Positions 2,468 through 59,988 of a stretch of 64,000 nucleotides of DNA are shown piece by piece. The notes beneath the pieces are model-generated. The model saw only the letters and a program-made list of their open reading frames with translations, made no database searches and was not told where the DNA came from. Origin of the DNA: Octopus vulgaris (taxonomy: Eukaryota); the NCBI GenBank assembly GCA_951406725.2, contig OX597833.1, positions 6,758,001 through 6,822,000 of the forward strand, read 5' to 3'. The translations under genes and the position numbers were made by a program. The number at the start of each line of letters is the position of its first letter. Position 1 is the stretch's first letter.

Positions 2468-2643
2468 ATATATATATATATATATATTGATAAAACAGTA
2501 AGATAACAAAAGAAAGAAAGAGACCTCAATATTATGTAAATAGAGGAAATTTATCTATACAATATCTTACATTACTCGGTAGTCAAGATAAAACTCTGAG
2601 TTTCAGATGCCGAAGTGGAAATCCACAACACCATCTCTTCGGA
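2468..2643 (-). mobile_element. Short (TA)n-anchored element with a hammerhead-like motif (CCGAAGA..GAAA CUC-A-GAG UU)
   Basis: Reverse complement of 2590-2643: CCGAAGA GATG..CATC T GAAA CTCAGAG TT; helix I 5' arm lost at the TA junction. Confidence 0.45.
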
Positions 2644-3234
2644 TATATATATATATATAAATATATATATGTATGTATGTATGCATGTATGTATGTATGT
2701 ATATATATATATATATGTATATTTGTATATATATATATATATATATATGTATGTATGTATATTTGTATATATATATATATATATATATGTATATTTGTAT
2801 GTATATATATATATATATATATATATATGTATATGAATGTATGTATATTTGTATATATATATATGTATATGTATATTTGCATATATATATATGCATGCGT
2901 ATATGTATACACATACACGCACATATATATATTTACTCACGCACATATCTGTGCTTTTGTATGAATTTATGTATAAATCTATGTGTATATATATGTGTGT
3001 ATGTGTGTGTGTGCGTACATGCAAGCATGCCTACATACACACATGTTGAGGCGCGTGTAGAGCATAAGGGGCCCTACACATACTTCAAAGAAACCTTATG
3101 AAAGACATATAACCACCCTACACATCTCCTCGCGCGTACTGCTGGGTGGGTTCGGGTAGGGGTAGATACCTCGCTTCCATTACCTCCAGGCAGCAGCAGG
3201 ATTGGTAATTTAAGGATGATCGTTACCGTTTACC

Positions 3235-4000
3235 CATCATCATCATCATCTCCACCACCACCACCACCACCACCACACAACAACAACAACACTACAACTA
3301 CTACTACTACTACTACTACTACTACCACCACATCACCACCGCTACCAGCTCTACCTCCAGCACCGCGACAATGTTGGTACAACTACCACGCGCACCCGAA
3401 CCAACATCATTACTACCCGTACCTCCACGATGACGACGGCGTCCACAACCACCACCACCACTACCACTACTACCACCACTACCATCACCATCACCATCAC
3501 CATCACCACCATCACCACCATCATCATCAACATCATCAGCATCATCACCACCACCACCACCACCATCACCACCATATCATCATCACCACCACCACCACCA
3601 CCACACCACCATCACCACCACCACTACCACCACCACCACTACCACCACCACCATCACATCACATCATCACCACCATCACCACCACCACCACCACCACCAC
3701 TACCACCATCACCACCACCACCACCACTACCACCACCACCACCATCACATCACCACCACCACCACCACCATCACCACCACCACTACCACCACCACCACCA
3801 CCATCACCATCACCACCATCACCACCATCACCACCACCACCACCACCATCACCATCACCACCATCACCACCACTACCACCACCACCACCACCATCACCAT
3901 TACCACCATCACCACCACTACCACCCCCACCACCAAAAACATCGTCACCATTACCACCACCATTGAAAACAACAGCACTACCATTAGTACCACCACCATC
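3235..4000. repeat. Compound (CAC/CAT/ACT)n trinucleotide repeat
   Basis: Direct inspection; explains the poly-H/P/T ORFs. Confidence 0.95.
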
Positions 4001-4628
4001 AGATGTGCCCCGCAAATTCCATCGGGTTTAAACTGTAGGTCGAACTATCTGTTTAGGTTGGGGGGGGGGCGCACACACACAAACACACACACACACAAAC
4101 ACACACACACACATAAATACGCAAAATCCAGGCAATTACAAAGACACCCGAAAATCTGTAGAATCGAAAAGACTTGTATTTCATTGTTGTTACAACATTT
4201 CGTCGGTTGAAAGACGTTCTTTTTTTCGTTTTTCTCCATTACTTTTGTTTATGTAGATACACGAAATGCTAGTATCTCTCCCCCCTCTCTCTCTCTATCT
4301 ATCTCTATCTCTCCCCCTATCTCTCTCGTAGTACTTATATAGGTATGCATATATAATATATATGCGTATCCCTCCCCTCTCTTTCTCTCTCTCACTCTCT
4401 AATCATATATATATATATATATATATATATATATATATATATATAAGGTGCATCCCAGAAGCTTTGGGATTTATATATACATTTATATATATATTTATAA
4501 AATTTATAATAAAATTTTTAATATCAGAGTAATAAAGATTTTAGAAATTTTTACTACCTGTGGTCTAGCGTGTAGAAAAATTAGTCAATAGACTATATAT
4601 TATTCATATAAATACAGTGTACATTTAA

Positions 4629-4950
4629 ACACGTAAGAGGTATCCGTCATAGGATTCCTTTCACGCTAGAAGGAACAGCTAAAGTCCAAACCACTATTTA
4701 GAGATAAAAATTCGAAGGGAATGAAATATAAAAACATTTACCATTTATTTCCTGGACCATGGTTTCTGACTTCTTTTAGCAAATAAAATAATTTGCTAGG
4801 CTAAAAAAAAGTCAGAAACCATGGTGCAGGAAATAGATGGTAAATGTTTTTATATTTCATTCTCTTCGAGTTTTTATCTCTATATAGTGGTTTGGACTTT
4901 AGCTGTTCCTTCTAGCGGGAAACGAATCCTATGAAGGATACCTCTTGTGT
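4629..4950. repeat. Long inverted repeat (about 150-bp arms); each arm carries the 3' half of a hammerhead
   Basis: 4635-4780 is the reverse complement of 4800-4946; arms contain GAAA CCATGG TC/TG CAGG. Confidence 0.85.
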
Positions 4951-5143
4951 ACCGTTGGCGATTTTTTTTTCCTCTGTCTTCCCTTCTCTGGATCTTTCCT
5001 TCTCCTATGTTTCCGACGAAGAGCTCCGCTCGAAACGTTAAGCCCTCCTTCTTTCCTTCTTTCCTGAGCGTCCAATAATACTTTATTTGTTCCACGTCCT
5101 CGCGTTGTTGAGTTTTTTGTGCTTTCTTGTTTGGATTAACTTT
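4947..5143 (+). mobile_element. (TA)n-anchored hammerhead element, family H1
   Basis: Near-identical to the reverse complement of 6775-6970 and 33951-34175. Confidence 0.85.
5009..5043 (+). ncRNA. Minimal type-I hammerhead motif, CCGACGA core variant
   Basis: gttt CCGACGA A GAGC tcc GCTC GAAA CG TT aagc. Confidence 0.6.
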
Positions 5144-5209
5144 ATATATATATATATATATATATATATATATATATATATATATATATATATATATATA
5201 CACGCATAC

Positions 5210-57057: not shown

Positions 57058-57282
57058 GTGTTTCCTTCTCGAGCCATGCCAGGTTCATAAGGGCCGGTTT
57101 CCTGGTTTCCATATCATATAAATTCCCCACCTGAAGGGGACACCGGTCCGTCGCAGGATTATTCATGTTTGCCAGCTGAGTGGACTGGAGCAACGTGAAA
57201 TGAAGTGTCTTGATCAAGAACACAACGCATCGCCCGAACCAGGAATCGAAACCACAATCTTACGATCATGAGTCAAACACTC
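57058..57282 (-). mobile_element. SINE with family-B head and core and a third tail type; same tail alone at 27686-27752
   Basis: Tail gaaaccggcccttatga..tggctcgagaagg. Confidence 0.8.
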
Positions 57283-57284
57283 CC

Positions 57285-57697
57285 AGCAAAAATAACCGAT
57301 AGAATATGTCCCAGGCTTTAAAAAAAAGAAAGAAAAGAAATACCTATTTCTTTATTACCCACAATGGGCTAAACACAGAGGGAACAAACAAGGACAGACA
57401 TAGGTATTAAGTCGATTACATCGACTCCAGTGCGTAACTGGTATTTAATTTATCGACCCCGAAAGGATGAAAGGCAAAGTCGACCTAAGCGGAATTTTGA
57501 ACTCACAACGCAACGGCGGACGAAATACCTATTTCTTTATTACCCACAAGGGGCTAAACACAGAGGGGACAAACAAGGACAGACGTTTCTGCCAGTTCGC
57601 AGAAATACAGGGTATCGATTAATGCGACTAAGAGTCCTCAAGGTGGTGCTCCAGCATGGCCACAATCTAATGCCTGAAACAAGTAAGCGATAAAAGA
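57285..57697. mobile_element. Family-A 3' fragment interrupted by a family-C copy with 63-bp direct repeats
   Basis: Direct repeat at 57337-57399 and 57522-57584. Confidence 0.75.
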
Positions 57698-59316
57698 CTC
57701 TCACACGCGCTTACGCATGTATTTCATGCAATATGGCCGCTGTTTAATCCCTCCCACGCTTCCCATACATCATAACCGATATACCTTATCCCTCGCTACC
57801 ATTTTATTCCAATCTCGTTCAGTTTTAAGACCTTTTTTTCTTTTTGTTTTTTTTCGAATTTATTTGAATTTCTTTTATCAAATATGGCGGGAAATCTGTT
57901 TTACATTTTTTTAAAAATTTATTTGTTTGTTTGTCTACTAATCCCCATCCTCCTCCTCTCCCACCTCCGCCCCGCTCCTTCTCTTCTAACCAATGTAATC
58001 AACATCCGACTTCCAATCTCCCATTTACAGATGGTAACAAATGCCTTCACAGCTCTCTCTCTCTCTCTCTCTCTCTCTCACTCTCTCTCCCCCTCTCTCT
58101 CTCTCTCTCTCTCTCTCTCTCTCTCTCTCTCGCTCTCTTTGCTGATTAGCACAAAAGCAAAATGTTTCTACACTCACGCCAAACCTAACGAGCGTGTGGG
58201 TGGAATGGTTTATGTGTGCGTGTTTTGCTGTGTATACGCACGTATGTTTATATACAACTATATATAATTGTACATACATATATACATACATAATTGTACA
58301 TACATATATATATATATATATATATATATATATATAACATATACATACACACACACAAGCGAGAATATATAAATACTCCCACGCATTTATACATGCACAA
58401 ATACACACACTCAAACATGCAAACACGTATATACATATGAATGGATGAGTAGACATGTAGCCACATGCATACGCATATTTATTATATATATACACTATAT
58501 ACATACATACATACATACATATATATATATATATATATATATATAAATACATACATATATATATATATATATACATATATATATATATATATATATATAT
58601 ATATATATATATATATATATGTATGTATGTATATATGCATATATATATATATGTATACGTATCTCCAACGCACCCCCTCCCCACAAAGAAACAAGAGGAA
58701 CAACAGCAAACACGACATCAACATCAACAGAGAAGCAACGAACATCTGAGCGACCTTGTTTATATTACAAGTGTGAGTAAACACACTGACTGCCAGAGTT
58801 ATTTATCGCTGATAAACTGCACAACCGGATTAAATCAGAAACTATAAAGAAAATAAAAAAATATTAAATAAATAAATAAATTTACAAAATGGAAGAAAAT
58901 TTTCAACTTTTCTTTTATGCCTTTTAATATTTCCTCCGCTTTTTTTTCTTTTTTTTTCTTTTTTAATTTTTTTTTTTTTTTTTTGGTACTTCTATTATTC
59001 TTCTTTTGCGTTCTGGTCCTGATTGCTCTTATAATTATCGTCCACCATGCCCCGATCTGAACTTCGCTAAACTTCGTTGATTTTCCCTAAAATATTTACA
59101 GAATCATTACACGTGGTGTTTTATTTTATTTTATTTTATTAAATTAAAATAACATTTAAAATAAGAGAATTAAAAATACAAGAAAATCAAAATTCGAACA
59201 AAAATTTTCAAAAATAATTCGTGTATTGCCGTAGCTAAATTCGATCGTTTAACTTTTTAGTTTTCTTTCAATATTTTCTCGCTGATTATGTCACTAAATC
59301 GTTAGAGCATTGGGGT

Positions 59317-59690
59317 GGAGGCGCAATGGCCCAGTGGTTAGGGCAGCGGACTCGCGGTCGTAGGATTGCGGTTTCGATTCCCAGACCGGGCGTTGTGAGT
59401 GTTTATTGAGCGAAAACACCTAAAGCTCCACGAGGCTCCGGCAGGGACGGTGGTGATCCCTGCTGTACTCTTTCACCACAACTTTCTCTTACTTCCTGTT
59501 TCTGTTGTACCTGTATTTCAAAGGGTCGGCCTTGTCACTCTCTGTGTCACGCTGAATATCCTCGAGAACTACGTTAAGGGTTCACGTGTCTGTGGAGTGC
59601 TCAGCCACTTACACGTTAATTTCACGAGCAGGCTGTTCCGTTGATCGGATCAACCGGAACCCTCATCGTCGTAACCGACGGAGTGCTTCC
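59317..59690 (+). mobile_element. Full-length SINE family B (tRNA-Arg-like head) nested in a family-C SINE, 11-bp TSD
   Basis: A box tggcccagtgg, B box gtttcgattcc; agagcattggg at 59304-59314 and 59695-59705. Confidence 0.9.
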
Positions 59691-59947
59691 ATCCAGAGCA
59701 TTGGGAAAATGCGTTGTAATATTTATTCCAGCACTTTAGATTCAGTGTTCAAATCCCGCCGAGGATAACTGTGCTTTTCATCCTTTAAGGACCTATAAAA
59801 TAAAATAGCCCTAATTTAATAGGTTAGGCATATTCGGCATTGTTTTTCTCCTAAAATTCTTGCCGGTCTGGATGTATTCCACTGAATTTTAGGTAAATAA
59901 TCCTTCGAACAGACGGTCAGTTGCGACGCCTGCTGGGTTCGGCTACT

Positions 59948-59988
59948 CTATATTGATAGGGGACAAATACCCTGAAACTAGTCTGTAG
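59948..59988 (+). ncRNA. Degenerate type-I hammerhead with extendable helix I
   Basis: ctata TTGATA GGGG acaaata CCCT GAAA CTAG TC tgtag. Confidence 0.45.

Follow-up and report, generated by a model that had tools for sequence, protein, structure and literature searches.

Short repeats with minimal type-I hammerhead motifs in a 64 kb window of Octopus vulgaris, likely the ends of Penelope-like retroelements

We analysed a 64,000 bp stretch of the Octopus vulgaris genome (contig OX597833.1 of assembly GCA_951406725.2, positions 6,758,001 to 6,822,000; hereafter the window, with positions counted from its first base), which has a G+C content of 36% and is rich in microsatellites and repeat relics. 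A sequence-only reading of this DNA had listed 16 minimal hammerhead ribozymes (2590, 5009, 6443, 6550, 6866, 7929, 8345, 27544, 34063, 34496, 38790, 39185, 41555, 43475, 46574 and 59948) in short non-coding repeats, which it took for non-autonomous Penelope derivatives or retrozyme-like units. A hammerhead-like motif was present near all 16 sites, eleven of them on the minus strand, and the host repeats were sorted into families A, B and C and units D to I and K.

Family A is represented by three copies of about 200 bp that are 85–90% alike by self-BLAST and alignment. Two of these, 4942–5142 (plus strand; core 5013, H17 5039) and 6778–6975 (minus strand; core 6896), have a U4C core and a 3′ end on a (TA)n tract, the latter joining a DNA-transposon relic at its 5′ end, while the third at 33954–34174 (minus strand; core 34093, H17 34067) has a strict core, all helices and TA on both sides. 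Family B comprises four minus-strand copies with an A6U core and a 3′ fragment, 73–87% alike by the same comparisons. The copy at 7839–8040 (core 7960) has TA at its 3′ end and (TC)n/(TA)n at its 5′ end; that at 8217–8444 (core 8377) lies 417 nt from the same-strand copy at 7960 and has TA on both sides, as does the copy at 27456–27637 (core 27575), in which the palindrome is broken; and in the copy at 39098–39222 (core 39217) a TA run truncates the unit 5 nt upstream of its core. The family B 3′-end fragment at 8510–8566 (minus strand) carries no hammerhead and is likewise flanked by TA.

Family C is a head-to-head inverted pair (6339–6697) with strict cores at 6481 on the minus and 6554 on the plus strand and a weak helix I; a type III reading of this family was dropped by eye, there being no UH before the upstream hairpin. 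Two further head-to-head pairs were assigned to single units: unit G (41229–41698) has a strict, intact motif at 41559 on the plus strand (H17 41593) and a 3′ half on its minus arm (41229–41353), and unit I (46414–46942) has a strict core at 46642 on the minus strand, a long helix II with U-U closure and a plus arm truncated in the core. Units D (2488–2642) and E (38690–38863), both on the minus strand with TA on both sides, share a U4C core and a 9-nt palindrome; in unit D the core directly follows the TA run, the 5′ helix I strand is lost and helix II is long, and unit E (core 38824) has a short inverted arm at 38761–38863. Unit F (34300–34533, minus strand; 3′ boundary approximate) has a strict core at 34527 and a broken helix II closing pair, and its 5′ end joins a mariner relic. 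Units H (43282–43580) and K (59940–60000), both on the plus strand, are not TA-anchored; in unit K helices I–III pair and the core is broken. Three further features had not been listed before: a head-to-head inverted pair of 3′ half-motifs at 4635–4946, with GAAA and an 8-nt palindrome at 4766 (minus) and 4815 (plus) and the 5′ half of the core absent; a TA-bounded plus-strand unit at 8624–8763 with a strict core at 8667 and degenerate helices; and a weak plus-strand candidate at 60226–60310 (U4C core 60234, long helix II, near-palindrome) whose score of 5 falls inside the range of shuffled sequence. By eye, 37170–37260 (minus strand) could pass for the 3′ half, itself truncated, of another hammerhead-like unit and is similar to the unit E flank, with no link by BLAST. 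Short TA-bounded ends without a hammerhead are each common to two places (38888–39027 and 40920–40948; 4446–4467 and 5213–5234), and are possibly tails of further families.

The abundance of these motifs was compared with that in shuffled sequence. A type-I descriptor (core with at most one mismatch, helices I and II of at least 3 bp, palindromic helix III) gave nine matches in the window, against a mean of 0.075 and a maximum of one in 40 block dinucleotide shuffles of the window with microsatellites stripped; its strict-core form gave three matches against none in the 40 shuffles. Eight of the nine belong to sites listed by the sequence-only reading and fall in four families (A, B, G and H); the ninth, at 58938, is chance-like. 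A looser motif score of at least 7 was reached ten times, compared with a mean of 0.45 and a maximum of two in 60 shuffles. The earlier statement that the helices differ between families and yet keep their pairing was borne out when one copy per family was counted: 30 of 36 helix I positions were paired across nine families (strand-swap mean 16, maximum 26) and 32 of 40 helix II positions across ten (mean 16.7, maximum 29; 20000 swaps each), a test that is biased upward because the sites had been picked partly for pairing. Helix pairs were counted by script, and MAFFT misaligned three of 12 motifs. An Rfam scan of the window showed no hammerhead family among the 150 of 471 matches listed. Loose matches to a hammerhead do arise by chance in AT-rich repetitive DNA (score of at least 5: shuffle mean 1.65), and those at 58938, 49388, 20209, 48061 and 35874 are probably of this kind. 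As an account of the whole set, however, chance has a negligible probability and is already refuted for the main sites by the descriptor counts, by the presence of strict or near-strict motifs in four separate families and by cross-family pairing above that of all 20000 swaps. The ribozyme-shaped motifs are real and occur far above chance frequency.

The quality of the motifs had been overstated. Of the form described by the sequence-only reading (CUGANGA, GAAA, palindromic helix III, UH), CUGANGA itself occurs in only seven of the 16 sites (6443, 6550, 34063, 34496, 41555, 43475 and 46574). Four sites have a U4C core (2590, 5009, 6866 and 38790), four an A6U core (7929, 8345, 27544 and 39185) and one a broken core (59948), so that the strict core is found in one family A copy (34063) and in C, F, G, H and I, and is absent from family B. 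A strict core with intact helices I–III was seen at three of the 16 sites (34063, 41555 and 43475); 46574 is near-intact, with one helix I mismatch and a U-U closing pair, whereas the 5′ helix I strand is lost at 2590, the helix II closing pair broken at 34496 and helix I displaced at 38790. Families A and B and unit H have the extra nucleotide and the G10.1 closing pair. The palindromic helix III is perfect or interrupted by one central nucleotide in 13 of 16 sites, self-complementary through G-U pairs at 6443, and broken at 6550 and 27544. One of the palindromes named earlier, ACCAUGGU, was found in exact form at the unlisted half-motifs 4766 (minus) and 4815 (plus), with a version of 9 nt at 46574. 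In most copies there are changes that are predicted to reduce self-cutting or abolish it.

Anchoring in TA runs, which had been described for most hosts, also stood in part. (TA)n lies close on both sides at seven of the 16 sites, but not at the remainder; a run of (TA)≥5 was found within 200 nt on the 3′ side of ten of the 16 sites, against a background of 25%, and 3′ ends on (TA)n are seen in families A and B and units D and E. Sites 34496, 43475 and 59948 (units F, H and K) have no TA anchor. A density of about one motif per 4 kb is correct as an average, but the sites are clustered, with counts per 8 kb of 6, 1, 0, 1, 4, 3, 0 and 1.

A and B units are 180–230 bp long with common ends: all seven copies end at the 3′ side on TA, about 90–130 nt past the cut site, the starts of three of the four B copies, immediately at a microsatellite, differ by a few bases, and those of the three A copies by up to about 12 bases, two of the A starts being junctions with other elements. 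Five inverted pairs were delimited (4635–4946, 6339–6697, 38761–38863, 41229–41698 and 46414–46942); all five are head-to-head, with the 3′ ends facing away from each other, and four contain at least one arm that stops inside the core or past it. Five of the listed sites sit in such 5′-truncated inverted pairs, which are of the ordinary kind. This anatomy bears on the earlier suggestion of retrozyme-like units, under which non-LTR (long terminal repeat) retrozymes would cut at each hammerhead, circularise and re-insert. The 180–230 bp unit size does overlap that of retrozyme monomers, and retrozymes often occur as solo monomers and descend from pseudo-LTRs (bioRxiv 10.64898/2026.07.22.740005; this and all other published sources are cited for the passages compared). 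Against this, no head-to-tail hammerhead array was found in the window by self-BLAST or among the 150 of 253 tandem repeats listed, same-strand neighbours are split by microsatellites or belong to different families, unit ends lie 60–130 nt from the cut site, and not at it, in every copy not shortened by TA, and the motifs are minimal as opposed to the canonical type in coral retrozymes (PMC7229834). We consider the retrozyme suggestion very unlikely and do not retain it.

Outside the window, we aligned contigs from four sequencing runs at 80% to 6339–7783. In one of the runs (X1) depth reached 3.7–3.9 million over family A and 50,000–270,000 over family C, compared with about 70 for the locus-identical contig; these summed depths are not copy numbers, and they point to a very large family A, of the order of 10^4–10^5, to which B copies may add. 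At 6561, 6564 and 6583 the majority letters of other family C copies bring helix II back to full pairing and let the palindrome pair, with G-U; the arms in the window are therefore decayed copies. Exact sequence patterns of families A and B had no match in metagenome, genome and viral contigs.

The window also contains remains of Penelope open reading frames (ORFs). A relic at 17170–17927 (plus strand) spans the reverse transcriptase (RT) thumb, linker and GIY-YIG domain, is broken, matches by tblastn with E values down to 7e-23 and ends about 55 nt before a TA run; another at 11885–12148 (minus strand) covers linker and GIY-YIG with stops and frameshifts (E 1e-7). A possible RT fragment lies at 61837–61959 (minus strand; E 0.003), with a weak hammerhead-like motif 220 nt downstream at 61615 on the same strand. 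A HMMER search with the 17170–17927 relic gave 25 protein relatives, and of seven scanned, five carry GIY-YIG and two of these also RVT_1. The two clearer relics match proteins that combine RVT_1, a Cys linker and, at the C terminus, a GIY-YIG domain; the best relatives have a CX4CxxC linker (P0010), of which the relic keeps one CxxC. Pfam matched none of 15 relic frames apart from a mariner at 34525, and a word-index search with the GIY-YIG relic gave 0 of 97 candidates.

The hammerhead was found beside the ORF in related loci. Among 25 marine-metagenome Penelope loci gathered with an alignment of eight relic-related proteins, ten have a minimal hammerhead 86–137 nt past the end of the ORF match, one of these (L006, at 716) with a U3-A8 core. 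In L021 the hammerhead lies at +318 with an inverted copy upstream (motifs at 2347 and 3656), in L023 the ORF is followed by a U4C motif that is damaged and has a helix II like that of family A (870–910), and in L004 there is a motif on each side of a full ORF (58 and 3757), giving the order pseudo-LTR, ORF, pseudo-LTR. L001 shares the U-U closing pair seen at 46574. The window units and the 25 loci have architecture in common, but not sequence.

Taken together, we put at roughly 80% the probability that the short repeats, about ten families carrying minimal type-I hammerheads, are the pseudo-LTRs (3′ ends) of several Penelope-like retroelements, copied into (TA)n from probably uncut RNA by an endonuclease and a reverse transcriptase that the elements themselves supply, with most copies predicted to cleave weakly or not at all. 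The earlier attribution to microsatellite-targeting, non-autonomous Penelope derivatives is upheld as to Penelope origin and microsatellite bias by the anatomy, the ORF relics and the motifs after ORFs in relatives; non-autonomous status is possible for A and B, but the data do not separate it from solo pseudo-LTRs of autonomous elements. The system works like, and very likely is, the minimal hammerhead ribozyme (min-HHR) system of Penelope, an assignment that stops short of proof because no unit is seen on an ORF, and we infer the partner ORF of the window units from their relatives.

Several observations weigh on the other side. Nowhere in the window are a Penelope ORF and a hammerhead unit joined, and neither of the clear ORF relics there has a hammerhead after it; 13 of the 25 related loci have no motif (contig ends, truncations or an early match end); and blastn between the units and these loci gave only matches of 15–25 nt, with no real similarity. 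The shared 5′ ends are those of just three A copies and three of four B copies, units F, H and K stand apart from TA, unit H has a tRNA-like head, and the mechanism known in vitro comes from a different clade (Poseidon).

By this Penelope reading, a GIY-YIG nuclease would nick AT-rich DNA, and reverse transcription would start at a fixed site about 90–130 nt downstream of the hammerhead cut and run through the cut site. The fixed internal start would give the fixed 3′ end on TA, early stops would yield truncated copies, priming from both DNA strands could produce the head-to-head pairs, and run-off at the RNA 5′ end may account for the fixed-length A and B units as solo pseudo-LTRs, perhaps copied again in trans. 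The copies run across the cut site instead of ending there, so their templates were likely uncut. In vitro, the protein of an anole Poseidon element cuts AT-rich DNA on both strands, and reverse transcription starts inside the RNA downstream of the hammerhead, uses uncut RNA and extends both strands; the anole hammerhead cut only with protein present, its cleavage was dispensable, and RNA-seq showed no RNA ends at the cut site (PMC11167929).

Cleavage today is probably low. Single minimal hammerheads are inactive and dimers weak (PMC4209133), and activity would require two ribozymes to dimerise through the palindrome; inverted arms lie on opposite strands and are therefore no dimer partners for each other. 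U4C lowers activity, yet is a natural, viable variant in a viroid, and A6C gave less than 0.1 per minute (PMC3088659); A6U is predicted to act like A6C. The best chance of a dimer in cis would be a minus-strand transcript over 6896–8377 or 34093–34527, in which the partners have variant cores or a broken helix. The same neighbours are what favours the suggestion that the motifs are intronic and cut or regulate a host pre-mRNA: they carry the same 4-nt palindrome on one strand, 417–1481 nt apart (6896, 7960 and 8377) or 434 nt apart (34093 and 34527), so read-through of the minus strand could form dimers. Set against this are the U4C, A6U or broken helix II of these very copies, a core that deviates in nine of the 16 sites, the inactivity of single minimal motifs and weakness of dimers noted above, and the anole RNA-seq result. 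Reading of the window recognised no host exon, so cutting within an intron is unsupported, and we hold it to be highly improbable.

Families A and B call for separate consideration. The identity of one to the other is 0.79 across the hammerhead and 0.93 across an 11-column downstream box, as opposed to 0.33–0.46 in the flanks; the box is located some 20 nt 3′ of the cut site (as at 34030–34045, minus strand), can pair with the 3′ strand of helix II, and could be a promoter, protein-binding or switch element. A6U occurs in all four B copies while N7 varies among three letters, and U4C in two of three A copies and in units D and E. In predicted minimum-energy folds the A and B motifs draw the core into an extended hairpin, and predicted homodimers keep hammerhead-like junctions for 41555 of unit G and for the B copies, while A copies form a plain duplex.

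These features, together with the shared 5′ and 3′ ends, the very high contig depth and the existence of non-autonomous Penelope derivatives (PMC8557442; bioRxiv 10.64898/2026.07.22.740005), would fit A and B being dedicated short elements with their own masters, moved in trans by Penelope protein, in which weakened cores are favoured since only uncut RNA is copied and the hairpin and downstream box act as a recognition signal. We put this forward tentatively, as a refinement of the pseudo-LTR explanation that does not exclude it. Solo pseudo-LTRs yield the same ends (PMC3846280), there are seven copies only, and position 6895, where U4C lies, was not among the 40 of 265 variants listed; U4C is moreover viable in the viroid cited above and present after the ORF in L023, and strict-core motifs likewise fold into off states in the same predictions.

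Unit H has the best-formed hammerhead of the window, a strict, intact motif at 43480 (H17 43515), preceded by a tRNA-like head with A and B boxes (43282–43350) and an (AAT)/(GAT)n tract and followed by a short tandem tail. ARAGORN found no tRNA in the head, Rfam gave no tRNA or hammerhead match, and the unit is present once in the window. Possibly it is a composite short interspersed element (SINE) that has a Penelope end; the trinucleotide tract stands between head and body, which may be two insertions. A bolder proposal, which we consider doubtful, is that the two most amplified families are SINE-like Penelope parasites whose hammerhead was selected to lose cutting (A6U, U4C) and kept as a hairpin signal with the downstream box, and that unit H is a tRNA-headed SINE with a captured Penelope end and an intact ribozyme. 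If true, it would amount to a natural experiment that asks, in tens of thousands of copies, whether a Penelope hammerhead has any need to cut.

Other repeats surround these units. Tc1/mariner relics lie at 6971–7690 and 34531–35010 (both plus strand) and at 20900–21500, of which the second matches PF01359 over 34525–35010 (E 1e-15) and the others were recognised by eye; hammerhead units 6866 and 34496 are joined directly to such relics at their 5′ ends. A C-terminal fragment of a well-kept retroelement-like ORF at 37780–38200 (minus strand), which we take to be of RTE/LINE (long interspersed element) type, has 88 homologues, up to 87% identical. Long inverted repeats at 50850–51137, 20120–20540 and 1702–1757 show no clear hammerhead and resemble MITEs (miniature inverted-repeat transposable elements) or fold-back relics, and 44230–44560 (plus strand) holds about 15 tandem copies of a unit of roughly 20 nt. 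Several SINE families, abundant and with tRNA-like heads, occur at 59317–59700, 40508–40790, 55750–56090, 19690–20090 and 31470–31850, with A and B boxes found by pattern at 59327.

For annotation, repeats that would otherwise be entered as SINEs or as unknown are likely to be the ends of Penelope elements, and this genome may contain tens of thousands of their ribozyme motifs. Amplified families with fixed core changes beside families with a strict core offer a ready comparison of copy number and age against cleavage rate. A literature search on octopus and cephalopod hammerheads and Penelope turned up, among the papers listed, none that describes these families or an A6U core in a hammerhead of Penelope; Lunse et al. 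2017, Repbase and the supplements of PMC4209133 and of the bioRxiv study may hold them.

The closest known system is the min-HHR of metazoan Penelope-like elements (Cervera and De la Pena 2014, PMC4209133), whose consensus has a U-rich flank, CUGANGA plus an extra nucleotide, a G-C closing pair and GAAA-palindrome-UH, and which forms many families, mostly of single motifs, with 2,000–9,000 per genome and molluscan examples in the supplement. The window motifs share with it the type-I fold, a helix I of 4–5 bp, the extra nucleotide after A9 and a palindrome for helix III, and, at the genome level, many families, mostly single copies and some opposite-strand pairs 100–700 bp apart. They differ in the family-wide A6U and frequent U4C, not met in the passages of text and supplement compared, in the second conserved box of A and B and in a depth that suggests far more copies than 2,000–9,000. 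Solo and head-to-head pseudo-LTRs are usual in Penelope (PMC3846280, PMC8557442), and a (TA)n bias is reported for Neptune and Naiad elements in a study that also describes inverted ends (PMC8557442). With Neptune-type Penelope elements that have a C-terminal endonuclease (PMC8557442, PMC3846280) the window shares the (TA)n bias, head-to-head ends, a pseudo-LTR of about 200 bp, a hammerhead about 100 nt from the ORF end and ORF relics matching proteins with a Cys linker before GIY-YIG, but no window unit is attached to an ORF, and Neptune is a candidate clade on the strength of the linker. Non-LTR retrozymes (PMC7229834; bioRxiv 10.64898/2026.07.22.740005) are likewise non-coding, 200–300 nt long, of type I and of probable Penelope origin, but are defined by tandem units each with a hammerhead, whereas those of the window are single or inverted, microsatellite-bounded and minimal, often with variant cores. 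The Schistosoma SINE-like elements with promoter and hammerhead (PMC6765202) resemble unit H in the tRNA-like head upstream of an intact hammerhead; unit H differs in being a single copy with head and body split. Penelope tails with hammerheads are an arrangement already described in animals, and the points of note that remain are the family-wide A6U, the frequent U4C, the further conserved box of A and B, the scale suggested by the depth and unit H with its tRNA-like head.

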